From the NCBI GenBank assembly GCA_045545475.1, contig JAZQAZ010000014.1, positions 10,938 to 74,937 on the forward strand: 64,000 nt of DNA. The letters are read 5' to 3'. This DNA is from Clostridia bacterium (GTDB lineage: Bacteria; Bacillota; Clostridia; CAKSNL01; HGM11501). The translations under genes and the position numbers were made by a program. This document shows, in pieces, positions 20,770-32,738 of this stretch. Position 1 is the stretch's first letter. Every line of letters starts with the position of its first letter. The notes beneath the pieces were generated by a model, which was given only the letters and a program-made list of their open reading frames with translations, was not told where the DNA came from and did not search any database.

Positions 20770-23700
20770 ATGCGTAAATTCATTTCAATGGTGTTGGCAC
20801 TTGTGATGATTTTGTCCTGCGTATACATAAATGTATCGGCAAACGAACTTATTGCAAGTACAAAGGTAGAACTTTATCAGCTTGCTCCCGAAAGTCAGAG
20901 CCTGATGGAGTCATACGTTATTAAGACAGATAACGATAAACTCATCGTTATTGACGGAGGTATTGACGGGGCAGGTCGTACATTGGCTCCATATCTTCCT
21001 GCAGCGCTCCGTGCCATAGCAGGCGTTGGCGAGGGTGAATACTTTGAGGTAGAAGCCTGGTTCTTATCCCACGCTCATGTGGACCATTTTTACGAGCTTT
21101 CCAAAATGCTTAACGAGTACGACGAGAATTCAAACTATAAGATAAACAACTTTTATTTTGATTTTCCCGAGTTCGGAAGCGAAGAATATTCCGGAACCCT
21201 TGGCGAAACAGGAGACGGATATCTTGCGGAATTGAAAGCCGGCCTTGATAACTACGCCGAGGTTAATGAAATTGAGTTTGATTCTGAGACTTACTATGAC
21301 GAAATTAACGGTGCTGTGGTAAACGAATCTGCCATAAGCAAAGGTCTTGATATTAATATAGACGGCGTAAGATTTGAAATACTTCAGACCTGGAGCGCTG
21401 AAGACGGCACAACGGAGATAAACAACACATCTATGATTATAAGAATGCACGCCGCAGGAAAGACAGTTTTATTCTTAAACGATGCATACATCCAGTCGGG
21501 TAACCGTCTTGTTGAAACTTACGGCGAAGACTTAAAGAGCGATTATGTGCAGACGGCTCATCACGGACAGTCGGGCACAAAGCAGAACGTTTATGATGCG
21601 GTTGATGCGGACTTCTTCTTATGGCCCACTCCTAAATGGATATGGACTAACCCGGACAGCTATGCCATTGACGACGTACGTACTTGGATTGCCGGTGAAG
21701 ACTATCTGGAAGTTCGTGAAAACGACCTTGTTGCGGGTATGTATGATGTATATCCCGATGATCCTGCGGTTGTTGCTGACTGGGCAGAAGCGCTTCCCGG
21801 TATGAAAATCACATTTACTAACGAAGATGCAAACTATACTGCACCCAAGGCGAATAAAAACCTTAAATATACAGGTGAAGAACAGGAGCTTATAGCAGAA
21901 GGCAGCACTGATATCGGCACTATGGAATACTGCATTGAAGGAAATGACTATGCAGATGCAATTCCCGCAGCTGTAAATGCCGGAGAATATACTGTATATT
22001 ACAGGATTACAGACGGCGAAAATGTTTTGGTGGAAGAAAGTATTAGTGTTACAATAGCAAAGGCGATACCTGAATTTACAGCTCCCGAAGCAAAAGTTCT
22101 TTTCAACACAGGGGAAGAACAAGAACTCATAGAAGCAGGAAGCATTGCGGAAGGTGAATTCTTATATTCCACCGATGACGTGGACTATTCTGCTGAAATC
22201 CCCACTGCAACAGAAAGCGGTAACTATACCGTATACTATAAAGTGGAGGAAAGCGAAAATTATCTTGAAATTTCAGGTTCCGTTGACGTTACAATAGGTG
22301 ACTATAAAGTTACCTTCAAAAACGGAAACGAACTTGCACCTTTTGATGAGGATGCTTTAGTCAGCGTTATGGATGGCGAAAGCCTTGCCTCTCTTCCTTA
22401 TTTTGAAGCAAAAGCAAATACATCACTTGCATACTTCAAGATAGGGGATGTCAGATTTACAGAAGAAGAACTCCTTTCTTATGAAGTTACGGAAAACACA
22501 GAAGTTTTAGCATATTTCAGAGAGTCGGCTATAACTTCCTGCGATTATGACTTTACCACTATGACTGAGGAAGAATTTGAACTTACTGTTTTTGGTATGG
22601 ACAGCGACTTTGTGCTTACCGAAGGCGTGGGTATTCAGCTTTCCAAGAACACTGAAACCACATATACCATTCCCATGGCAACTGATGTTTCCGAAAGTGC
22701 TTTCTCCATAAGCTACGGATGCACCGGTACTGCCAATACAGGCGGATTCAACGGACATATTACACGTGGAGCTGATGCTGTTGCATCTTTCTATCATACT
22801 GCAAACTCCATGGTTGTTTACGGCTCAGGTGCCACACACAGATTCACAAACGTGGGACAGGTAGACGACGGAACACGTCATACTGTAGAATATATAATAG
22901 ACCTTGAAAATGAAATGCAGTATATGATTGTGGACGGCTATGCCGGCATTGTTCCTGCTGAAGGAGCATATTCTATCCGTGGAAACAGAAAGCCTGACCT
23001 TCTTAAGATTATTGAAAAAGCAGGCGGATCTCTTATTATAGACAGCTTCAGCATAAAGCGTTTTGACGATGCCAAGGCAAGAAAAGTTACTTTAGCTGCA
23101 GGAGAAGGCGTAACAGCGGTTAACTTCTTGAACAGAACGGAAAATGCAACATACGACAATTCATATATTTATATGGTGGAAGGCACAAAGGTTCCTGTTG
23201 GTGCAACGATGGATGAAGAAACTGCCTTTTCCTCATGGGAAGCAACAAGCGGAAGCTTTTCGGACGAAACTGCAATGAAGGCGGTTTATACGGCCGGAAG
23301 TGCAAATGCGACGGTAACCGCAGAAGGTGAAGCACCTCAGATTTCCGAAGGAGACGTTGCGAAAATCGGCAGAGTAGGTTATGCAACACTTCAGGATGCA
23401 ATTAATGCAGTAGGTGACGGACAGACGATCACTCTGCTTTCCGATGAAACTGTTACAACAACACTATTACTCAACACAGGCAACAGCTTTACCATAGACG
23501 GTGCAGGATTTGATCTTATTTTCGGAATGAGCGATAAAACAGTGAACTGTGTTTATGTTTCGGCAGACACAAAGGTGCTCTTTAAGAACATTGATATCTA
23601 CAGAAACAACACCACCACAAACAACTACGGATTTTTCTATATCTCCACCGGTAGCATAACACTTGGTGATGGGGCAGTACTCGGAAGCACTTCCGTTCAG

Positions 23701-26700
23701 ATGGTTCAGGGTAACGGCGGTATAATCTGGGTTCAGAAGGCATCAACCGACACAGGTACGGGCAAAGCATATTTCACCCTTAACGGTGAAGGAGCCAAGA
23801 TTCAGAATGTAAAAGGCTCCTGGCAGAAAGGTTTGTTCGACGGCTCCAACGCAACGGAAGTAAACCTTCTTAAGGGAACAATCGAAAATTGCACACATGG
23901 CACAGCCATGGTTGGAGAAAGAGGAAACTTTATAGTAAACCTGGGCGATGTTACAATTATAAACTCAAAAGAGCCTACAGTTAACGGAAACTCCAATACC
24001 ACGGTTAATATAACAGGAAGCGGAACTCTTGGAACGGTTAAGGCATCTTCTGCTAAGATAAGCTTTAAAAAGAGCCTTACCTATGGTCCTTCTTCACTTA
24101 CATATCAGGGTAGCGACTTTACAGGAAGCGTTGTATTTAATGTGACAGATACTACAGTTCCTGCAAGCTATGCGAAAATTGAAAGCGGAATGAAGGTGGG
24201 AGGTGACATCAAATCAACTGACGGAAAAACCTTCAGGGTTGATGCAGACGGAAACCTTGTTATGAGCAGCTTTGTTGAAACGGGCTATGAGCTTGAAATC
24301 AGCAATACACAGAACAATGGTTTATACAACGCAGTCTTTGTGGTTCCTGCAAGAGATAATATGGAAATTGAATCCGTAACATATGTTGATACATTCGGAA
24401 ACACTTTAGACGGTAAGGCGGCAACAAAAATTACGCCCAACGATGACGGAATAACAATGACAGTTACAATAGCTGGTGACTATACCAAGGAAAACGGCTA
24501 TACTGACTGGGTTGACGGAACATATGCAACCAAATACGGCGAAACTCATTTTGTTTTCGGAAATACCGTATATAACTGGCAGGCAGGAGATATCGTATCA
24601 CCTGATTTCTTCAAGGGTATTTTCATCAGAGAAGTATTGGGTGACGGTGCAGGAGACCACATTATAAATGTTAAGTTTGCCGACGGAGAAACTCTGGAAT
24701 TCAATGTGAAGACAAATCTTCAGTGGGTTGAACTTACAGCACCCGCTGCTGTTAAGGAAACGGAATATACCGATGAAATAACACCCATTGCGGGTTGGAA
24801 AACTGCGGCAACCACAGTAAGTAACAATCTTACAAAGGCCTTTGACGGATATTCCGAATACCTTATTAAGAAGCATGCGTTCACTGATGCATCAGGAAAT
24901 GCAATGTCGGTAAATAACCGCTTTGAGACAGACTTTATATCGCAGGTGGTTAAAACAGCCAGCGGAAACGCTACAATTCCTTCGGGAAGCAAATATGTTT
25001 CATCTATAACTCAGGTTCTTCTGTATCCCGCACTTCGTATGGACTTTTTTGTTGATACCATTGACGGGCTTGATACATCGGGTATCAGAATTTATCCCAG
25101 AATCAACTCTTACAATGAAAATAAGGCATCGGGAAGCGGTAGAGGTGTGCCTTCAAAAATTGTATTCTGGGGTTCAAACGATGGAGAAAACTGGGATAAC
25201 TTAGGTACGTATAATTTCAATAGTACACTCGAAGAAAAGACAGCTCTTTTTGGCAAAAATGTAAGATATCGTTATTACAAGGGCTCCATTCTTGAGGTAA
25301 ATGGAAATACATATAAGCAGACAGCAAACATTTCAGAACTTGTATTTATAAAACCTGAAACAGAGCTTAAGAGTAATACAGCACTTACATTTGATACTGC
25401 AGAGGAAAATGCGATTGAATTTACCTTCAAGACATATCTTGAAGAAACAATCGAAAGCCTTAAGGATAAGTCAGGAAATGATGCGGAATTTACATTTGAA
25501 AATGACACCCTTACAATCGATGCGACTTATCTTAAAGCACTCACAGACGGAACATATGAATTTACTGCTAAATTCACAAATGGTGCAGAATTTGCTCTTA
25601 CCATTATAAAAACTGATGCGACAGAGGTTACATACCTTCTTGCAGACAGCGGAGAGATGGGAAGAGGCACAAATGAACTTGTTCTTGCAAGTGTAAGCGG
25701 AAAAGAGATAAAGAAGGTTACATATAACGGCGGAAAAGCTCTTTCATATACGGCATCCGATGATAATAAGACAATTGCTATCGCAAGATATGATTTCCGT
25801 GGAGGTATGGATCTTTATGCTACAATGACTTTAGAGGAAGACGGACTGGTACCGGTTGTTGTGACATACAGTGATGATACAACAAAAACCTATAATGTTA
25901 CCATAAGCTCCGACTGGGTGGGAATCCCCGCACCTCATCCAGAAGCTACCTTCCTTTCCGACGAACTTAAGCCTAAGGCAGGAGAGTGGAAAGTAAGAAC
26001 AAGCTCTGCAAACACAGCACATAATCATCCTGCTAACTTGTTTACCGGCAAGCTTTACAACGAGAAAAACAAGAATAACTGGCATACAGGATATACATTG
26101 GTAGATGGTGCTCCTATAGCAGATACTGAGCTTGACCAATACATTGATGTGGATTTCGGAGCAAACGTAAAGCCTTACAAGGGAATACGTATTACCGAGC
26201 GTGTAAGCGGCTCAAGATATGAGAATATCACACTTTACGGTAAGAATTCAGACGGTGAGGAGTGGACCTTACTTTACAGCGGTTCTGCTGATGCTGTGGC
26301 ACCTTCTGCAAATGAAATTCTGTTTGAAGAAGCCGTAAATTATCGTTATTTAAGAATGAAGATCAACGGTAGGGACAACCACGTTACTGCAGATATAATG
26401 CGTATTATAAACGGAGTGGAAGAAGGCCAAGTGAACATCAAGGTTACACCCACAACCGGTGGTAACGTAACTGTAACAACAGGCGGAACAACTGCTCCTT
26501 CTCTCGGAGATAACTATGTTGAAGCAAATACAAATGTAACCTTTACGGCTACAAGCGATGAGTCGGGAGAATTCTGCTATTGGATAGAGGCATCTACAGG
26601 CAAAATTCTTGGCAAGAAGGCAACGCTTAATGTAAATACTGCAATAGGTAAGGATATAAAAGCGGTATTCGCATCACCTGCGGATACGGAAGCTTTTGTA

Positions 26701-27540
26701 AGCTTCTACGGAATAGAAAAGGGAAGCATACTGGCAACGGGATATGTAAAGAAAAATGATGCCCCGTCGGCTTTGGTTCCTTCCGCTGAAAAGCTTTATA
26801 CCACGGGTTATGCATTCAGCAAGTGGGTAGATAAGGAAGGAAATGATATTGATGTCGATGCGGCTGTAAGTGAAAACACAGAATACTATGCACTATATTC
26901 TGAAAAGTCAGAAGAAAATAAGAGATTCAGTACAATCACTGTAAACGGCGGTAAAGTAGTTGCATTAGGAAGCGGAAAAGCCGGAGTGACAAGCGGAACA
27001 TTTGCATATGATACTGTGCTTCGAGCAACTGCTGATGAACCCAATGAGGGCGAAGAGTTCAAGTACTGGACCTTGGAAGGTAATATCGTAAGCTATGATG
27101 AGAAATACAAATTCTATGCTCCCGACGCAGACATCACTCTTACAGCGGTATTCGGACCTAAAGAAGAAGCGGTTACAGAAAAGGTACAGATAGCAATAAC
27201 CGAGACATCTGACGTAGTTAATGGTGTAAATGTCGCTGGATTTATCACAACGAGATATGTGCCTTCCGGAGTTAATGTTATTGAAACCGGTGTTATTTAT
27301 GTAAAGGATGCAAGCTACGAAGGCTCAGGCGAAGACGGTAAGCTTACTGTAGCTGATGCGGGAAATACAAGTGCCAACGGAAAGACGGTAAAGGTGGCAT
27401 TTTCCTCCAAAACGGAATCCGGTCAGCATAAACTTTCTGCAAGCTATACAGATCTTGGTATAAAGGCGGTTGGTTTCATAACTTATGTTGAAGGTGAGGG
27501 CATAACAACACTTTACACAGATATGATAACGGTTAAATAA
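20770..27540 (+). CDS. Giant secreted multidomain surface protein: N-terminal MBL-fold (ComEC-like) domain, MBG/Ig-like repeats, beta-helix and discoidin-like regions
   Basis: 2256 aa. Signal peptide MRKFISMVLALVMILSCVYINVSA. HAHVDH metal-binding motif (WFLSHAHVDHFYEL) and TAHHGQSG. Duplicated KYTGEEQELI...EYTVYY MBG-like repeats. Gly/Asn-rich beta-helix-like stretch. F5/8-type-C-like segments (NLTKAFDG..., NPANLFTGKLYN...). Confidence 0.75.
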   Translation: MRKFISMVLALVMILSCVYINVSANELIASTKVELYQLAPESQSLMESYVIKTDNDKLIVIDGGIDGAGRTLAPYLPAALRAIAGVGEGEYFEVEAWFLSHAHVDHFYELSKMLNEYDENSNYKINNFYFDFPEFGSEEYSGTLGETGDGYLAELKAGLDNYAEVNEIEFDSETYYDEINGAVVNESAISKGLDINIDGVRFEILQTWSAEDGTTEINNTSMIIRMHAAGKTVLFLNDAYIQSGNRLVETYGEDLKSDYVQTAHHGQSGTKQNVYDAVDADFFLWPTPKWIWTNPDSYAIDDVRTWIAGEDYLEVRENDLVAGMYDVYPDDPAVVADWAEALPGMKITFTNEDANYTAPKANKNLKYTGEEQELIAEGSTDIGTMEYCIEGNDYADAIPAAVNAGEYTVYYRITDGENVLVEESISVTIAKAIPEFTAPEAKVLFNTGEEQELIEAGSIAEGEFLYSTDDVDYSAEIPTATESGNYTVYYKVEESENYLEISGSVDVTIGDYKVTFKNGNELAPFDEDALVSVMDGESLASLPYFEAKANTSLAYFKIGDVRFTEEELLSYEVTENTEVLAYFRESAITSCDYDFTTMTEEEFELTVFGMDSDFVLTEGVGIQLSKNTETTYTIPMATDVSESAFSISYGCTGTANTGGFNGHITRGADAVASFYHTANSMVVYGSGATHRFTNVGQVDDGTRHTVEYIIDLENEMQYMIVDGYAGIVPAEGAYSIRGNRKPDLLKIIEKAGGSLIIDSFSIKRFDDAKARKVTLAAGEGVTAVNFLNRTENATYDNSYIYMVEGTKVPVGATMDEETAFSSWEATSGSFSDETAMKAVYTAGSANATVTAEGEAPQISEGDVAKIGRVGYATLQDAINAVGDGQTITLLSDETVTTTLLLNTGNSFTIDGAGFDLIFGMSDKTVNCVYVSADTKVLFKNIDIYRNNTTTNNYGFFYISTGSITLGDGAVLGSTSVQMVQGNGGIIWVQKASTDTGTGKAYFTLNGEGAKIQNVKGSWQKGLFDGSNATEVNLLKGTIENCTHGTAMVGERGNFIVNLGDVTIINSKEPTVNGNSNTTVNITGSGTLGTVKASSAKISFKKSLTYGPSSLTYQGSDFTGSVVFNVTDTTVPASYAKIESGMKVGGDIKSTDGKTFRVDADGNLVMSSFVETGYELEISNTQNNGLYNAVFVVPARDNMEIESVTYVDTFGNTLDGKAATKITPNDDGITMTVTIAGDYTKENGYTDWVDGTYATKYGETHFVFGNTVYNWQAGDIVSPDFFKGIFIREVLGDGAGDHIINVKFADGETLEFNVKTNLQWVELTAPAAVKETEYTDEITPIAGWKTAATTVSNNLTKAFDGYSEYLIKKHAFTDASGNAMSVNNRFETDFISQVVKTASGNATIPSGSKYVSSITQVLLYPALRMDFFVDTIDGLDTSGIRIYPRINSYNENKASGSGRGVPSKIVFWGSNDGENWDNLGTYNFNSTLEEKTALFGKNVRYRYYKGSILEVNGNTYKQTANISELVFIKPETELKSNTALTFDTAEENAIEFTFKTYLEETIESLKDKSGNDAEFTFENDTLTIDATYLKALTDGTYEFTAKFTNGAEFALTIIKTDATEVTYLLADSGEMGRGTNELVLASVSGKEIKKVTYNGGKALSYTASDDNKTIAIARYDFRGGMDLYATMTLEEDGLVPVVVTYSDDTTKTYNVTISSDWVGIPAPHPEATFLSDELKPKAGEWKVRTSSANTAHNHPANLFTGKLYNEKNKNNWHTGYTLVDGAPIADTELDQYIDVDFGANVKPYKGIRITERVSGSRYENITLYGKNSDGEEWTLLYSGSADAVAPSANEILFEEAVNYRYLRMKINGRDNHVTADIMRIINGVEEGQVNIKVTPTTGGNVTVTTGGTTAPSLGDNYVEANTNVTFTATSDESGEFCYWIEASTGKILGKKATLNVNTAIGKDIKAVFASPADTEAFVSFYGIEKGSILATGYVKKNDAPSALVPSAEKLYTTGYAFSKWVDKEGNDIDVDAAVSENTEYYALYSEKSEENKRFSTITVNGGKVVALGSGKAGVTSGTFAYDTVLRATADEPNEGEEFKYWTLEGNIVSYDEKYKFYAPDADITLTAVFGPKEEAVTEKVQIAITETSDVVNGVNVAGFITTRYVPSGVNVIETGVIYVKDASYEGSGEDGKLTVADAGNTSANGKTVKVAFSSKTESGQHKLSASYTDLGIKAVGFITYVEGEGITTLYTDMITVK

Positions 27541-27663: not shown

Positions 27664-28995
27664 ATGGAAATAAACAAGAATGATGAAGTAAGAATTTATA
27701 TAGACGGATATACCTCGGAGGGTGCCGGTGTTGGCAGAATAGGTAAATATCCTATATTTATACCAAACACTGTGCGGGGAGATTATATCCTTTGCCGTAT
27801 AGTTAAACCCGGCAAAACCTTTGCGTGGGGTAAGTGTATGGAAATCCTTACGCCCTCAGAGGAAAGGATAGAGGCAGTCTGCCCTCACTTTTACGAGTGC
27901 GGCGGTTGTGCCATTATGCATATGTCGGAAAAGGAGCGTGCCTTTTTCAAAAAGGACAAGGTAAAAAACGCCTTTTCCCATATAGCGGGGATGGATATAG
28001 AAGTGGCAGATACTGCAATTGGTGAAGAGACAGGCTATCGCAACAAAACACAGATGCCGGTTTCAAGCGATTATACTCAGGCTATGTACAAAAATCGTAC
28101 CAATATCAAGGTAAGTGTGCCCCATTGCGTTATTCAGGACGAAGAGGCAAAGAAAGTGACGGAAATAATTATTTCTTATCTTAAGGAGAAGAAAATCCCG
28201 CCTTATGAGCCTACGGAAAAACGGGGCGTTGTCCGCCATGTGTATACCAGGGTTTCAAAATCAACAGGCGAAATACTGGCTATAGTAATAGCGACTGAAA
28301 AAATCGACCTTACGGATATTGAAGCCCCCCTTCGTAAAGCGAATGTGACAGGATTGGTTCTTAACATTAACGAAAAGCATACAAATACCATCCTTGGAGA
28401 TAAATCTATTACGGTTTTCGGTAAAAACTTTATAACCGACCGCCTTTGCGGAACGGATTTTGACATTTATCCCGACTCCTTTTTTCAGGTAAATAAGTAC
28501 CTAACGGAGCAGCTTTACAATAAGGCTGTAAAGCTCTGTCATTTGACAGGCAAGGAAACGGTATTCGATCTTTATTGCGGAGCGGGCACGATAACTGCAG
28601 CACTTTCAAAGGGTGCTGAAAAAGTAATCGGTGTTGAAATTGTACCCTCTGCCGTAAAATCTGCAAAATACAGTCTGGAGCGTGCCGGCATTACCAATGC
28701 TGAAATTTACGAGGGATCATCAGAAGTTGTGGCACCAAAGCTTATAGAAGAAGGAGAAAAGGCGGACGTTGTAGTTGTTGATCCGCCCAGAAAAGGCTGC
28801 GGAGAGGAGCTTCTTTCCTCAATAGCCAAAATGAAGCCGGAAAGAATCGTTTACGTATCCTGCGATGTTGCAACATTAGCACGTGATGCAAAGTATTTAT
28901 CCGAACACGGCTATAAGGTCGAGAAAGCTTATCCTTTTGACATGTTTCCTTTTACATACCATGTAGAGACGATTGCTTTGCTTAAGCTTAAATGA
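27664..28995 (+). CDS. rlmD: 23S rRNA (uracil-5-)-methyltransferase RlmD/RumA family (TRAM + Fe-S + SAM MTase)
   Basis: N-terminal TRAM-like domain. Cys cluster CPHFYECGGCAIMHM. SAM motif DLYCGAGT. VVVDPPRKG. Starts at ATG 27664 after a GAGG RBS; the ORF track starts slightly upstream. Confidence 0.85.
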   Translation: MEINKNDEVRIYIDGYTSEGAGVGRIGKYPIFIPNTVRGDYILCRIVKPGKTFAWGKCMEILTPSEERIEAVCPHFYECGGCAIMHMSEKERAFFKKDKVKNAFSHIAGMDIEVADTAIGEETGYRNKTQMPVSSDYTQAMYKNRTNIKVSVPHCVIQDEEAKKVTEIIISYLKEKKIPPYEPTEKRGVVRHVYTRVSKSTGEILAIVIATEKIDLTDIEAPLRKANVTGLVLNINEKHTNTILGDKSITVFGKNFITDRLCGTDFDIYPDSFFQVNKYLTEQLYNKAVKLCHLTGKETVFDLYCGAGTITAALSKGAEKVIGVEIVPSAVKSAKYSLERAGITNAEIYEGSSEVVAPKLIEEGEKADVVVVDPPRKGCGEELLSSIAKMKPERIVYVSCDVATLARDAKYLSEHGYKVEKAYPFDMFPFTYHVETIALLKLK

Positions 28996-29008
28996 GAGGG
29001 GGACAGAT

Positions 29009-29701
29009 GTGGGCTATACAAAAGAAAAGATTATTGAAAAATGCGAAAAAGCATTTTGCGATATAAAGACTTTTTATAAAAAAGATTTTATAAATTACGG
29101 CGGACGTACAACTGATACGGATGAATATTATACAGAGGTTGTAGCGGAGTTTCTTATTAAGCGTATTGCACAATACGTCAAAGGTATTCCTGAGATAACA
29201 AGAGAAAGCACATATAAAACGCCGACTCATGACGGAATGTATGATGAAAATACGCCCCGTGAGGAAGAAAAAATTGCAATGGAAATGTTTAATCAGTCAA
29301 AAGAAGGTAAGAGTTATAATTTTATAGGGGATATTATTGATTATCAGACACCTCTTAAAAACAAACGTGAGGATGTTGCGGGGAAGATTGATTTGCTTTC
29401 TTATGACGGTAACTTTTTAAGGATTCTGGAACTTAAAAAGCCGTTGAGTGATGAAAGTATGTTAAGGTGTGTTCTCGAAGGATATACATATCTCAAAACG
29501 GTAAATAAGAAAAAATTACTTGAAGATTTCACCTTGCCTGCAGAAACAGAAGTTGTTGCTTGTCCTTTTGTTTTTAAATACGGAAAGCAGCATGAGGAGA
29601 TGAGCGAGGAAAGACCTTATTTATTTAAGCTTATGGAACTGCTATGCAGCAAGCCATATTATATAAAAAAAGAAAAAGACATTTATATTGTGGAGGAATG
29701 A
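29009..29701 (+). CDS. Hypothetical protein, putative PD-(D/E)xK-like nuclease (low-GC cassette gene 1)
   Basis: GTG start with RBS GAGAGGGGGA 5 nt upstream. Segment VAGKIDLLSYDGNFLRILELKKP fits a hhhDhhh...(13 aa)...hhEhK restriction-endonuclease-fold core. No other recognisable domain. Local GC is about 35%. Confidence 0.4.
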   Translation: MGYTKEKIIEKCEKAFCDIKTFYKKDFINYGGRTTDTDEYYTEVVAEFLIKRIAQYVKGIPEITRESTYKTPTHDGMYDENTPREEEKIAMEMFNQSKEGKSYNFIGDIIDYQTPLKNKREDVAGKIDLLSYDGNFLRILELKKPLSDESMLRCVLEGYTYLKTVNKKKLLEDFTLPAETEVVACPFVFKYGKQHEEMSEERPYLFKLMELLCSKPYYIKKEKDIYIVEE

Positions 29702-29705
29702 GTTT

Positions 29706-30347
29706 ATGAAAAAGTTATTGGAAAAGAGCGATTTATTAGCAGGGATATTTGCAGTGATTGCGGTGGTTGCTATAATGTGCGAGGTGGTCTTTGGGGGATT
29801 CACAAAAGAAAGTGTTGTGGGCGGAATAAAAGATATAATGGGAATTACAGTAGATATTTTGGTGTTACTTGTGGCGGCAAGTGCGCTTATTCGTAAACCG
29901 TTGAATTTCAGGAAGGCATTTACGGAAGCGATGAATGAAATAACAGAAAAATATAACCCTCTTCTTATCGAAGATAAAAAAGAGGATGTTATCAGATATA
30001 GGATTGCAAGTAATTCGGATGCTTTATTTACAGGGGAAGCCAAGGATCCCGAAAGAGTGTTTGAACTTGAAAAAAATAAACCTGAAGAAATTCGTTTTTA
30101 TGTTAACAAAAGCTTTTTTGATCATAAGGGTGGAGAAGATTTTGATGCTGAATTAATAGCAAACCAAATTTCTGTAAGGTTGGCAGCTGTATACAAAAAC
30201 TACAATATTTTACCGTTTGAAAATAAAAAGAATTATGGCATTAAAGTGAATTTCACTCGTACGATGAATAAGAGAGAGGATATTGACGAGATTGTATCCT
30301 TGATAGATTACGCTTTGTTTTTATTTGTTGCAAGGAATAAATCATGA
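29706..30347 (+). CDS. Hypothetical 2-TM membrane protein (low-GC cassette gene 2)
   Basis: RBS GGAGG then ATG 29706. Two N-terminal hydrophobic helices (LLAGIFAVIAVVAIMCEVVFGGF, ITVDILVLLVAASALI) then a roughly 150-aa soluble domain with no recognisable motif. Confidence 0.45.
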   Translation: MKKLLEKSDLLAGIFAVIAVVAIMCEVVFGGFTKESVVGGIKDIMGITVDILVLLVAASALIRKPLNFRKAFTEAMNEITEKYNPLLIEDKKEDVIRYRIASNSDALFTGEAKDPERVFELEKNKPEEIRFYVNKSFFDHKGGEDFDAELIANQISVRLAAVYKNYNILPFENKKNYGIKVNFTRTMNKREDIDEIVSLIDYALFLFVARNKS

Positions 30348-31492
30348 AAATTAAAATTCATCGTGGACAAAATCAGATAGGCGGCTCTATAATTGAAGTA
30401 TCAAGCGATAATGCCAGAATATTTTTGGATATTGGCATTGAACTGGACGAGGATAAAGAGATTGAAGTGCCAAAGATAGAAGGCTTGTTTTGCGGAACTA
30501 AAAACTGTGACGCTGTTATAATCACTCATTATCACTCAGACCATATAGGACTTGCGAATTATCTTCTTTCTGATATTCCTGTTTACATGGGAAATAAGGC
30601 ATACAAGGTGATGAAAGCGGCCTATGATTACAGAGATATTGAAATGAATTTTACGCCCGACTTTATTGAAGACGGAAAGATTATTCAGATTAAAGATATT
30701 AAAATAACGCCTGTTTCTTGTGACCATTCTGCTTTTGATTCGTATATGCTTTTGATAGAACACGGCGAAGAGAAAACCTTATATACGGGGGATTTCAGAG
30801 GAAACGGCAGAATGGATTTTGAAAAGATTATTGGAAAACTGCCATGTGTGGATAATTTGATTATTGAAGGAACAACACTTTCACGCAAAGATAATATGGA
30901 AAATATACAGGAAGAAAAGCTGGAAGATATTGCTGTAGAATATCTTGATAAGCATAAGGGACCTGCGTTTATTATGATGTCGGCTATGAATATAGATAGG
31001 GTTGTAACAGCTAAAAATATTGCAAAAAGAACAAACCGATTATTTTTGGAGGATATTTATACTGCCGATATTATGACATCAATAGGGATGGATATAGAAA
31101 ATACAGGCGTGTTTATGACAGGCGGAGATAAGCAGTATGAAAAACTGCAAAGGTATCCCGACATAAAAATCGGCAAAAAAAGAATTGCAGAAACTCATTT
31201 TGTTATGTGCGTCAGAGCATCAATGAAAAACTATTTGTCTAAATTGAATGAGTTAATGTCCTTTGAAGATGGAGTGTTGTTCTATGGAATGTGGAAGGGG
31301 TATTTAGAAAGACCGGAAACAAAAGAGTTTATTGAGTTCATGGAAAGCAAAGGCGTGAAAGTTCATATTCTTCATACAAGTGGCCATGCTGATAGTATGA
31401 CTATAAAAAGGTTGATCGAGGCTGTTAAGCCTGGAAAGATAATTCCGGTTCATACTGAAAATGCGAAATGGTTTGAAAACTATAAATATTAA
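30344..31492 (+). CDS. MBL-fold beta-CASP family nuclease, compact RNase J-like (low-GC cassette gene 3)
   Basis: 382 aa. HxHxDH (ITHYHSDHIG), CDHSAF His, YTGDFRG Asp, the beta-CASP motif-C HTSGHA, and KPGKIIPVHTE. The start overlaps the upstream gene by 4 nt (ATGA). Confidence 0.75.
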   Translation: MKIKIHRGQNQIGGSIIEVSSDNARIFLDIGIELDEDKEIEVPKIEGLFCGTKNCDAVIITHYHSDHIGLANYLLSDIPVYMGNKAYKVMKAAYDYRDIEMNFTPDFIEDGKIIQIKDIKITPVSCDHSAFDSYMLLIEHGEEKTLYTGDFRGNGRMDFEKIIGKLPCVDNLIIEGTTLSRKDNMENIQEEKLEDIAVEYLDKHKGPAFIMMSAMNIDRVVTAKNIAKRTNRLFLEDIYTADIMTSIGMDIENTGVFMTGGDKQYEKLQRYPDIKIGKKRIAETHFVMCVRASMKNYLSKLNELMSFEDGVLFYGMWKGYLERPETKEFIEFMESKGVKVHILHTSGHADSMTIKRLIEAVKPGKIIPVHTENAKWFENYKY

Positions 31493-31556
31493 AGGCTTTC
31501 TTCATTATTAAAAGCCGCAGGCAACATTTCTGATAATGGAGCTAAGGGGAGAGGTA

Positions 31557-32159
31557 ATGACTGATTTGTTGAAAGAAAAAGCAAGCGAAATAATATCGTT
31601 GATTAATGATATTCCGGGAGTTAAAAATTGTACTCTTTACGGAAGCATTGCAAAAGATACATATGATGAATTGTCAGATATTGACATAGAGATAGATGTT
31701 TCGGGGATGGATAACGGACTCTTTATGCTGAAAATTTCAGAGCTTCTCAAGGATAAAATGGATATTTATTATGCTGATTATGCTCCGAGCCTTGCTCCCG
31801 ACAAATACATCGTGTCACTTGCAATTGATAAGGATAATCCGTTTCTTATTCTTGATTTGTGTATTGTTGCAAATCCCCACTGCACTACTGTTACGAAAGA
31901 AGATGTAATGGGTAAAAACGGAAAATACACTCATACATTAAAGCTGTGGACAGCAAACCTCAAGCATTATGTAAGAGGGAATGAGTGCCTGAAAGATATT
32001 TTGAAGATGGCAAAGAAAATCGGGATAGAAGATGCAGAAGACAGAAAAGAAGCTGAACTGCTTTTGGAAACCTTGCACTATCTTGAGGCAAATGTTCCGA
32101 GCGGTCTTTCGGAAGTTGTGAAATCCTGCAGAATGGTTTTTGATAAATTGATGAAATAA
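31557..32159 (+). CDS. Pol-beta superfamily nucleotidyltransferase with C-terminal helical domain (low-GC cassette gene 4)
   Basis: LYGSIAKDTYDELSDIDIEIDV matches the [GS]x9-13Dh[DE]h NTase signature, as in KNTase/Lnu/ANT-type or MNT enzymes. Starts at ATG 31557 after RBS AAGGGGAGAGG; the ORF track starts at 31536. Confidence 0.7.
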   Translation: MTDLLKEKASEIISLINDIPGVKNCTLYGSIAKDTYDELSDIDIEIDVSGMDNGLFMLKISELLKDKMDIYYADYAPSLAPDKYIVSLAIDKDNPFLILDLCIVANPHCTTVTKEDVMGKNGKYTHTLKLWTANLKHYVRGNECLKDILKMAKKIGIEDAEDRKEAELLLETLHYLEANVPSGLSEVVKSCRMVFDKLMK

Positions 32160-32171
32160 CAGGTGAAGAAA

Positions 32172-32738
32172 ATGGAAAAGCAAAAAAAGAGCGGCCCCGC
32201 CATATTTATGTATATTGTTATCGGTATGACAGCCGTGGCATCTGCCGTCTGCCTTTATCTGTACTATGGAGGAATTAATAAAAGCGATGCAATTCTCTGG
32301 GCAGGCATTGTGTCTTTTATGATAATGTATCATCTTTGGACAAGAATCATAATGGGGAATGTTTCAAAGCTTTTCAAAATAAATATGGATAATGCCTGGT
32401 TTTCGGAAAAGCCCTTTGAGAAAAAGCTCTATGAGCTATTGAGGGTTAAAAAGTGGAAAGATAAGGCTCTTACATACAATCCCGAAGCCTTTTCATTTAA
32501 GAAGCATACCCAGGAAGAAATCGTTTATGTTATGACAAAATCGGAAGTAGACCACTGGATAAACGAAATAATCTCACTTACAAGTATTTTGTTTTCCCTT
32601 ATCTGGGGTAAGGCGTGGATATTTTGTATAACTGCAGCTTTAGCTATGATTTTTGATGCACAGTTCATCATAATTCAGCGATATAACCGCCCCAGGCTTT
32701 TAAGAATTATTGAAAAGAAAAAAGGAAGAAGCATATGA
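32172..32738 (+). CDS. Small polytopic membrane protein, CrtO-like (glycosyl-4,4'-diaponeurosporenoate acyltransferase-like) family
   Basis: Two N-terminal TMs, then KKWKDKALTYNPEAFSFKKHTQEEI...DHW...FDAQFIIIQRYNRPRLL. This resembles the widespread Firmicutes family PGAP labels this way, from memory. The start is uncertain (32163 or 32172). Confidence 0.45.
   Translation: MEKQKKSGPAIFMYIVIGMTAVASAVCLYLYYGGINKSDAILWAGIVSFMIMYHLWTRIIMGNVSKLFKINMDNAWFSEKPFEKKLYELLRVKKWKDKALTYNPEAFSFKKHTQEEIVYVMTKSEVDHWINEIISLTSILFSLIWGKAWIFCITAALAMIFDAQFIIIQRYNRPRLLRIIEKKKGRSI

Follow-up and report, generated by a model that had tools for sequence, protein, structure and literature searches.

The question raised by this locus is whether a run of low-GC genes between rlmD and dus constitutes a single acquired defence system, as the initial annotation of the window (the whole 64-kb stretch of DNA analysed) had proposed, or whether only part of the run forms a unit and, if so, what that unit might do. 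The basic description of the run was borne out. Four co-directional ORFs span 29009–32159 with successive gaps of 4, -4 and 64 nt, the G2 stop overlapping the G3 start (ATGA), and no terminator-like site was found within the four-gene run by a simple scan. The four genes are low in GC (G1 0.341, G2 0.346, G3 0.352 and g4 0.367) compared with rlmD at 0.428, as had been claimed; dus, however, has a GC of 0.395 and not the 43–45 % attributed to it. A windowed GC calculation, which had been proposed as a check, shows that the G1–G3 segment (28971–31566, GC 0.350) is the lowest 2.6-kb stretch of the window, 3.3 SD under the mean. An Rfam scan of 27.4–34.3 kb returned no match near any gathering score.

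The interval also contains a fifth gene, g5, which had been overlooked between g4 and dus. The features of the interval are collected in Table 1.

Table 1. Features between the 3′ end of rlmD and the start of dus, in window positions
Feature	Position	Strand	Description
rlmD last 12 codons (HVETIALLKLK*)	28960–28995	+	Left boundary of acquired segment; att-like sequence
G1	29009–29701	+	230 aa, GTG start, PD-(D/E)xK fold; constant hub of the proposed module
Imperfect 26–29-nt direct repeat, left copy	29704–29732	+	Repeat families D1, D4; right copy 30817–30845
G2	29706–30347	+	213 aa; N-terminal two-helix membrane hairpin and variable alpha/beta C-terminal domain
G3	30344–31492	+	382 aa, compact beta-CASP metallo-beta-lactamase (MBL) protein, predicted nuclease; putative exchangeable effector
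Spacer after G3	31493–31556	+	Decayed trace of right-hand rlmD-end repeat; homology to relatives resumes at 31567
g4	31557–32159	+	200-aa Pol-beta-type nucleotidyltransferase (NTase); resident, outside the G1–G3 module
g5	32172–32738	+	188-aa CrtO-like membrane protein (PF18927, E 2.6e-25); overlaps dus start codon

The G1, G2 and G3 proteins and their linkage

G1 has the alpha/beta core fold of restriction endonucleases by which members of the PD-(D/E)xK superfamily are recognised, so that the reading of its D...ELK spacing as a restriction-endonuclease-fold core was confirmed. In 43 homologs with identities down to 37–40 %, the predicted catalytic residues D128, E141 and K143 reach at least 95 % conservation, as do D111, Q113 and K117. 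G1 is thus a putative metal-dependent nuclease of the PD-(D/E)xK type. A D...ExK triad on the same fold is shared with Upx, Shedu SduA, Hachiman HamA, McrC and Can2/Card1. No match was obtained for the G1 profile against PDB sequences, and neither G1 nor G2 has a match in Pfam, NCBIfam, PADLOC 2.0 or PHROGs. The G1 family comprises about 1300 sequence clusters from gut and rumen bacteria, and relatives are also found in Fusobacterium, Veillonellaceae, Symbiobacterium and Thermodesulfovibrionales.

The prediction that gene 2 encodes a membrane-anchored protein with two transmembrane segments likewise held, as hydropathy and the AF2 model both give a hairpin of two hydrophobic helices. This hairpin is conserved, with G13, E26, K42 and D43 invariant. 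The C-terminal domain is mosaic: even where two loci are 80–90 % identical in G1 and G3, it is only 23–40 % identical. No significant fold match was found for the predicted structure of G2.

G3 scores above the Pfam cut-offs for Lactamase_B, Lactamase_B_2 and RMMBL and carries MBL motifs 1–4 and beta-CASP motifs A, B and C, motif C being a histidine. The full beta-CASP set noticed in only 382 aa is thus genuine, and no variation is seen among 30 homologs at D29, H62xH64xD66H67, H128, D150, E175, H348 or H370. By sequence search the nearest solved relative is the uncharacterised Enterococcus protein EF2904 (PDB 2AZ4, E 2.4e-15). In its MBL plus beta-CASP architecture and its full set of seven motifs, the motif-C histidine included, G3 agrees with RNase J, archaeal CPSF1 and EF2904; unlike RNase J it lacks the RNase J C-terminal domain and is an accessory, mobile gene rather than a core gene. 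Assignment to RNase J was rejected (TIGR00649 gave 73.9 bits where 400 are required and RnjA 62.1 where 820 are required, with only residues 8–234 aligning), as was assignment to aCPSF1 (60.5 bits against a cut-off of 580). Assignment to Cas14 was also rejected, since the NCBIfam cas14_MBL_CASP model gave 34.8 bits against 800, only the N-terminal ~75 residues align and no cas genes are located in this region of the window. Judging from its RMMBL match and its histidine at motif C, G3 probably acts on RNA, with DNA also possible.

Linkage was assessed at 56 non-redundant G1 loci besides the window, of which 50 are assessable and 6 undeterminable. Twenty-two have G1, G2 and G3, 14 have G1 and G3, and 6 have G1 alone; in the remaining 8 an alternative protein of ~300 aa, here called c4, is located beside G1 in place of G3, with G2 present (7 loci) or without it (1 locus). 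In total, G1 adjoins G3 or c4 in 44 of the 50 assessable loci and in many different neighbourhoods, so that the linkage is independent of context. Single-chain fusions are also apparent, joining G1 to G3 (P0417), to G2 (P0342, P0345), to c4 (P0340) and to a REase-ARP/PDDEXK_13 domain (P0423, P0353); these proteins are metagenome gene calls, some of which may be frameshift artefacts. No match for c4 was found in Pfam, PADLOC or PDB, and comparison with the G1 profile gave no similarity (hhalign probability 0.3 %); a D...EAK motif is the sole basis for regarding c4 as a putative nuclease. The expectation that the homologs would co-occur as a conserved block in other genomes therefore holds for genes 1–3, which do so in varied contexts, and fails for gene 4, which is found at no other G1 locus. 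Together, G1–G3 make up a conserved and so far uncharacterised cassette that is passed among gut bacteria.

Limits of the cassette and insertion at the 3′ end of rlmD

The assignment of gene 4 as a Pol-beta NTase is sound, as g4 passes the Pfam cut-offs for both Polbeta and NTP_transf_2 and its annotated start was confirmed. Its membership of the same system is contradicted. Neither g4 nor g5 lies beside G1–G3 in any of 52 G1 loci from other genomes, and g4 is also absent at loci L001, L002 and L055. Conversely, an ortholog of g4 (81–82 % aa identity) occupies the same place beside dus in the close relatives L064–L066, all of which lack G1–G3. In these relatives rlmD is followed by a small PF05635 gene, then by the NTase ortholog and finally by dus. 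The NTase gene starts 4 nt after the PF05635 gene, which encodes a small helical protein; this partner is missing in the window. The linkage of gene 4 to genes 1–3, whose absence the initial annotation had itself named as evidence against a four-gene system, was therefore not found. In relatives, g4 resembles the NTase of MNT-HEPN and AbiE pairs in having a small-gene partner, and it shares with them an N-terminal Pol-beta NTase domain and the GS...DxD signature; it differs in that the partner is PF05635 rather than HEPN or AbiEi, and in an extra C-terminal helical region of ~120 aa. A specific identity as MntA of a HEPN-MNT pair was rejected (20 bits against a cut-off of 60, no HEPN gene, and PF05635 as the partner in relatives). 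The suggested alternative of a resistance-type (Lnu/ANT-like) enzyme was also discarded, since the NCBIfam scan gave no match to an ANT or Lnu family and only sub-threshold matches to MntA and a CBASS cyclase, and PDB gave only weak MNT matches. g4 is the remnant of an older, neighbouring PF05635-NTase pair. The gene next to it, g5, is absent from L064–L066, where the NTase-dus distance is 44 nt, and present in L063; it is a separate, independent indel. The unit is therefore three genes, G1–G3, without g4, and tight packing together with a common low GC in one genome is insufficient to define a system.

Horizontal insertion into a housekeeping run, which had been suggested from GC, is supported by comparison with relatives. 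The cassette is absent from L064–L066, which are 86–90 % identical to the window at the nucleotide level. Homology to L064 stops within the rlmD end, after ~28970–28980, and the rlmD C-terminus reads KLK* in the window compared with VRTVSAI* in L064. A strain that is 94–97 % identical to the window (L063) keeps the 36-nt rlmD end (28960–28995) joined to G1, although the DNA further upstream is unrelated. This strain carries a deleted version of the cassette: window positions 29702–30848 are missing, so that G2 is gone entirely and G3 has lost its 5′ part. Two copies of a direct repeat mark the ends of the deletion (Table 1). G1 and G3 are 70–93 % identical between genomes in which the adjacent rlmD proteins are only 35–52 % identical.

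Copies of the rlmD 3′ end are located on both sides of the cassette in L006 and L007; in these two loci both marks of a rumA/rlmD element are present, namely a copy of the target at each end and a changed C-terminus of rlmD. A clear rlmD-end repeat copy follows G3 in L001 and L003–L007, whereas in the window only a weak resemblance is left at this position and the left copy alone is clear. No convincing direct repeats flanking the cassette were found within the window itself, the repeats being visible only in related loci, and an exact search of JGI metagenomes with the leader of the right-end repeat gave 0 matches. No recombinase is located between the repeats or elsewhere in 27–37 kb of the window; recombinases were found only near some of the copies away from rlmD. 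The rumA gene is a known target of serine-integrase ICEs, which exchange its 3′ end (PMC4701971). Elements of this kind, as well as integrase-less cis-mobilisable accretion elements, have several features in common with the cassette: insertion at the 3′ end of the gene for a 23S rRNA uracil methyltransferase, an altered C-terminus of the encoded protein, and tandem units separated by target copies (PMC4701971). In contrast to these elements, the cassette is only ~2.6 kb long, has no integrase or conjugation genes, and has repeats of ~40–70 nt of the rlmD end compared with the 2–21 bp reported for streptococcal ICEs. The cassette is horizontally mobile and is located at a recombination hotspot, the rlmD 3′ end, without a recombinase of its own. 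Functional coupling of the cassette to rlmD was rejected because the att-like duplications of the rlmD 3′ end account for the adjacency.

Possible function

The best explanation, with a probability of roughly 0.55, is that 28960–31556 is a self-contained mobile three-gene nuclease module that protects against phages or other invading DNA. In such a module G1 would be the constant core that binds its partners, and G2 would tether the complex to the membrane while its variable cytoplasmic domain senses a trigger. G3 would be an exchangeable nuclease that degrades nucleic acid after the trigger, its place being taken in other genomes by a REase-ARP domain or by c4. Because neither c4 nor the C-terminal domain of G2 can be assigned to a fold or family, the roles of sensor and effector are guesswork. 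Effector swapping between G3, c4 and REase-ARP and the mosaic G2 C-terminal domain are counted as defence-like traits, as are the conservation of the catalytic residues in G1 and G3 and the absence of G1 relatives from searches of the phage collections IMG/VR and INPHARED. Some cassettes are located in contexts with a TIR_2 protein, SLOG/YAcAr, serine recombinases, a KAP NTPase, HIRAN or a Panacea toxin-antitoxin pair, and further contexts include McrBC, type II REases, RhuM and SoFic. Counted against a defence function are neighbours such as RecA, acetate kinase and a tRNA synthetase, housekeeping genes that are common as well, the conservation of 60–90 % across many gut Clostridia, which is unusually high for a defence gene, and the arrangement in the window, where the cassette forms an operon-like run together with two RNA-modification genes, rlmD and dus.

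The statement that no named defence system is recognisable holds for G1–G3, which match none in PADLOC 2.0 (2023) or NCBIfam 20 (2026). A limited literature search found no description of a defence system of PD-(D/E)xK, TM and beta-CASP proteins, nor any of EF2904 or REase-ARP. Partial precedents exist for G3. In type VII CRISPR-Cas the effector nuclease, Cas14, is a beta-CASP protein recruited by other proteins (PMC13069675, PMC10910872); the likeness is that a beta-CASP nuclease does the cutting for an immune system, which for G3 is a proposed role, and no cas genes or repeats are located near G3. MBL-fold hydrolases also serve as exchangeable effectors in multi-gene defence modules such as Lamassu LmuA-MBL, HamMAB and protease-activated MBL modules (PMC13069673, PMC12642450). 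Unlike these, the cassette has no SMC-like, helicase or protease partner. The matches of G3 in PADLOC 2.0 have E values of 3e-4 or weaker and cover only N-terminal MBL segments of LmuA, RTasMBL and PDC-M48B, and the likeness to Lamassu is confined to the first 70 residues of an LmuA model, at E 3e-4.

The nucleases could instead serve the spread or retention of the cassette itself, through homing cleavage of empty rlmD 3′ ends, excision control (G1 resembles XisH-type proteins) or post-segregational killing. This reading of a selfish cassette is unlikely, as about three quarters of G1 loci are located away from rlmD and have no such repeats, serine recombinases near some loci could act in trans, and homing normally leaves its target unduplicated. 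Effector swapping and a variable membrane-anchored domain would also be unexpected for a mobility function.

A housekeeping or stress-related nucleic-acid complex at the membrane, active in RNA turnover or maturation or in DNA repair and tied to rlmD and dus, would account for the RNase J/CPSF-type motif set of G3 with its motif-C histidine and RMMBL match, for the high sequence conservation and for the nine loci in which rlmD is directly upstream of the cassette. It is quite improbable given that the closest relatives have either no cassette or a degraded one, that the spread of the cassette is patchy and crosses phyla, that G3 can be replaced by unrelated proteins and that the GC is unusual within the window; the duplications described above account for the position beside rlmD. 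A single four-component system of PD-(D/E)xK, 2-TM, beta-CASP and NTase proteins, to which the co-directional, tightly packed run without a terminator-like site and the weak matches of the NTase to PADLOC PDC-S09 and MntA would lend themselves, is very improbable in view of the other G1 loci without a g4 homolog, the ortholog paired with a PF05635 gene in L064–L066 without G1–G3 and the homology breakpoints that put g4 outside the inserted segment.

The three-gene defence module also raises a broader and more doubtful possibility. The G1 family may mark a widespread, undescribed class of immune modules consisting of a PD-(D/E)xK hub, a variable sensor anchored in the membrane and a nuclease that can be exchanged (beta-CASP, c4 or REase-ARP). 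Within a single clade of gut Clostridia, such modules would travel as promoter-less, recombinase-less cassettes. Along with other small cassettes, among them that with PF05635, they would accumulate after copies of the rlmD 3′ end, as an integron-like defence array read through from a housekeeping gene.

If the module does protect against phages or plasmids, it would be a new multi-gene system whose core proteins G1, G2 and c4 have no family assignment, and it would provide the second immune context with a beta-CASP nuclease after type VII CRISPR. Short cassettes without their own recombinase or an obvious promoter, bounded by copies of the rlmD end, suggest a cheap route of exchange, by which gut Clostridia may be swapping small defence modules at one fixed chromosomal site.

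Layout and base composition of the rlmD–dus run

The initial annotation had proposed a four-gene defence cassette (G1 to g4) between rlmD and dus, and its observation is largely correct. The four ORFs agree with it in coordinates and in intergenic gaps of 4, −4 and 64 nt, and a simple scan found no terminator-like site inside the run. The GC content it gave for dus was too high (measured, 0.395), and a fifth gene before dus, g5, had been overlooked. GC content is 0.34–0.35 in G1–G3 (0.30–0.33 at third codon positions, GC3), 0.367 in g4 and 0.428 in rlmD. The segment holding G1–G3 has the lowest GC for its size across the window. A large ORF lies immediately 5′ of rlmD. The related contig L064 has a 1727-aa counterpart, with DNA homology (81 %) limited to the first ~4.5 kb, thus the C-terminal part is variable between related strains.

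Coordinates of features in the window and in homologous loci
Feature	Contig	Position (nt)	Length	Remarks
Large ORF	window	20770–27540	2256 aa	
Low-GC segment	window	28971–31566	2596 nt	GC 0.350; 3.3 SD under mean
G1	window	29009–29701	230 aa	PD-(D/E)xK fold; GTG start preceded by GAGGGGGA ribosome-binding site
Segment deleted in L063	window	29702–30848	1147 bp	G2 and catalytic N-terminus of G3
Imperfect direct repeats	window	29704–29732; 30817–30845	26–29 nt	
G2	window	29706–30347	213 aa	Two-helix membrane protein
G3	window	30344–31492	382 aa	Compact beta-CASP metallo-nuclease; ATGA overlap with G2
g4	window	31557–32159	200 aa	Pol-beta NTase; start confirmed by exact database entry
g5	window	32172–32738	188 aa	CrtO-like PF18927 membrane protein; stop overlaps dus start
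c4	L012	11361–12266		
c7 gene	L014; L019	4091–4498; 9565–9996		
Panacea and membrane-protein genes	L038; L043	2044–3239; 10636–11825		Fusobacterium
Deletion junction	L063	1172–1177		
PF05635 gene	L064; L007; L006	9020–9370; 9156–9503; 2–61	116 aa	Directly 3′ of rlmD
rlmD/PF05635 spacer	L064	8842–9019		

Protein features and conserved partners of G1

G3 matches Lactamase_B, Lactamase_B_2 and RMMBL in Pfam, and its MBL and beta-CASP motif residues are all invariant across 30 homologs. It falls within the beta-CASP superfamily but belongs to neither RNase J nor Cas14; similarity to these and to aCPSF1 is far under curated cut-offs, and among solved structures its nearest relative is EF2904 (PDB 2AZ4), itself uncharacterised. 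G1 is a PD-(D/E)xK superfamily member outside every described family, with no match in Pfam, NCBIfam, PADLOC or PHROGs and no relative among PDB sequences; D128, E141 and K143 are invariant in the homolog alignment. G2 has two hydrophobic helices, and the positive-inside rule places its C-terminal alpha/beta domain, by prediction, in the cytoplasm. Its only four invariant residues (G13, E26, K42 and D43) lie in the hairpin, and the C-terminal domain matched no known fold. Within that domain (residues 68–212) a helix, beta-hairpin, beta-hairpin pattern is repeated; Foldseek gave no more than a weak resemblance, to the C-terminal DNA-binding domain of T4 MotA (5jlt, TM ~0.5, E 0.07). The NTase g4 is above Pfam thresholds for Polbeta and NTP_transf_2; curated models for resistance NTases, MntA and CD-NTases gave no match.

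Searching 185,579 species genomes with the G1 alignment gave 52 loci, in Clostridia, Oscillospiraceae, Acutalibacteraceae, Lachnospiraceae and Ruminococcus, and further in Fusobacterium, Veillonellaceae, Desulfitobacteriaceae, Symbiobacterium and Thermodesulfovibrionales. Among 1.84 billion representative proteins, a profile search returned 1302 G1 clusters, of which 893 reach E ≤ 1e-10. With loci fetched via homologous proteins added, 56 non-redundant loci were compared, the window not counted. G1, G2 and G3 occur together in 22 and G1 with G3 in 14; G1 and G2 are followed by c4 in seven, G1 is paired with c4 in one and stands alone in six, the remaining six being cut by a contig end. The inverted order (G3-G1) is found in Fusobacterium and others. 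Fusions join G1 to G3 (P0417), G2 (P0342, P0345), c4 (P0340) or REase-ARP/PDDEXK_13 (P0423, P0353), as well as to HEAT, Sel1 or HTH domains. G1 is thus the constant element, combined with changing nuclease domains and with the membrane protein.

The orphan c4 family (~300 aa, D...EAK motif) occupies the beta-CASP nuclease position after G1-G2 (L012, L016, L018, L020, L024, L026, L027 and L037); its invariant motifs are PPKMASFGSSSR and NLDGF...FVEAKCREPY, and it has no match in Pfam, PADLOC or PDB. A conserved 133–143-aa protein of no assigned function (c7) precedes G1 in several distant loci, and a 74-aa Cys-rich protein (c64) lies 3′ of G1 in L044 and L047; either may be an accessory component. 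Directly downstream of G1 in Fusobacterium lie genes for a Panacea (SocA-like) antitoxin and a membrane protein; G1 itself is truncated in L043.

Exchange and decay at the rlmD 3′ end

Three related contigs, L064–L066, align to the window at 86–90 % nucleotide identity, their dus being 90 % or more identical to the window's, with synteny extending another 10 kb. Their order is rlmD (93 % amino acid identity), a PF05635 ‘23S_rRNA_IVP’ gene, an NTase (81–82 % identical to g4) and dus. They contain no counterpart of the G1–G3 segment, and the window contains no trace of the PF05635 gene. This reciprocal absence indicates that g4 is resident and that G1–G3 stand in place of its former partner. Additionally, g5 has no counterpart in L064–L066 and is present in L063, and is therefore a separate indel at the same hotspot. 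L063 is 94–97 % identical to the window and reads G1, deletion, g4, g5, dus. As the deletion ends coincide with direct repeats, the deletion is probably genuine and due to microhomology, which would mean that a dispensable module is decaying. At its junction the start of G2 is joined to the C-terminal half of G3; a comparable G1/G3 deletion-fusion protein occurs elsewhere (P0446).

At nine loci including the window rlmD is directly upstream of G1; across these the rlmD proteins are 35–52 % identical, whereas G1 is 70–93 % and G3 78–89 % identical. A short rlmD 3′-end fragment (HVE[CT]..LL..stop) is retained beside G1 without adjacent rlmD in L006, L007, L031 and L063, with two copies in L006 and three in L007 exactly bracketing G1-G2-G3. 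In L001 and L003–L005 a degenerate copy follows G3, with a conserved TGATACTGTCGCAGACACCACACAACC leader ahead. The window's cassette is bounded on the left by the rlmD end (C-terminus KLK*, versus VRTVSAI* in L064), and after G3 the repeat persists only as a faint remnant. For rumA, a methyltransferase gene of the same family as rlmD, site-specific targeting by serine-integrase ICEs is documented in streptococci and Clostridioides difficile, and their insertion exchanges its 3′ part (PMC4701971). Carriage of the cassette resembles that of rumA-targeting and integrase-less accretion elements, but the cassette differs in its small size and long repeats. As it contains no recombinase and G1 starts 7–45 nt past the repeat in L006, L007 and L063, we infer mobilization in trans and read-through transcription.

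The PF05635 gene seems to represent another type of mobile cassette at the rlmD end: L064 and L007 share it at 88 % identity, though their rlmD proteins are 42 % identical, and the second gene after it differs each time (NTase, 129-aa protein or Zn-ribbon protein). The spacer ahead of it in L064 holds about eight densely packed ATATCG/CGATAT motifs, and the sequence after the rlmD stop in L007 begins similarly (ATAAATCTCT...GAGATTTTCGATAT).

Approximately three quarters of G1 loci occupy other chromosomal sites. Some neighbour serine recombinases, TIR_2, SLOG/YAcAr, KAP NTPase, HIRAN, a Panacea toxin–antitoxin pair, McrBC, type II restriction enzymes, RhuM or SoFic; many others adjoin housekeeping genes. 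No G1 relatives were found in IMG/VR or INPHARED phage records, and plasmids gave one weak match only.

Candidate function of the G1–G3 module

G1–G3 show several traits typical of accessory modules for conflict or defence. The three-gene unit is conserved, its catalytic sites are intact, and its nuclease is exchangeable (G3, c4 or REase-ARP). The G2 anchor is conserved but the soluble domain is mosaic (23–65 % identity where G1/G3 have 70–90 %). Distribution across phyla is patchy, close relatives show loss and decay, and the site of carriage is an integration hotspot. On these grounds a nuclease-based anti-phage or anti-mobile-DNA module is the favoured reading, with a probability of about 0.55. 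G1 would serve as hub, G2 as membrane tether and sensor, and G3 as effector, with complex formation, trigger, substrate and phenotype all presumed. RNA-cleaving members of the beta-CASP family typically have a histidine at motif C; G3 has this histidine, which weakly favours RNA as its substrate.

Two rival readings carry some, though little, weight: a selfish cassette, its nucleases serving its own mobility or retention, is improbable, and a housekeeping RNA- or DNA-processing complex is slightly more improbable still. The four-gene model is essentially excluded, g4 being resident in L064–L066 without G1–G3 and homologs of g4 or g5 being absent across the 56 G1 loci save the near-identical L063; the module has three genes, and the NTase is a bystander.

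No PADLOC 2.0 system or NCBIfam name was matched by the module, and a literature search found no published description. The proposal of an acquired, undescribed, defence-like module is thus upheld, and G1–G3, although short of an established system, are a solid candidate for experimental testing.
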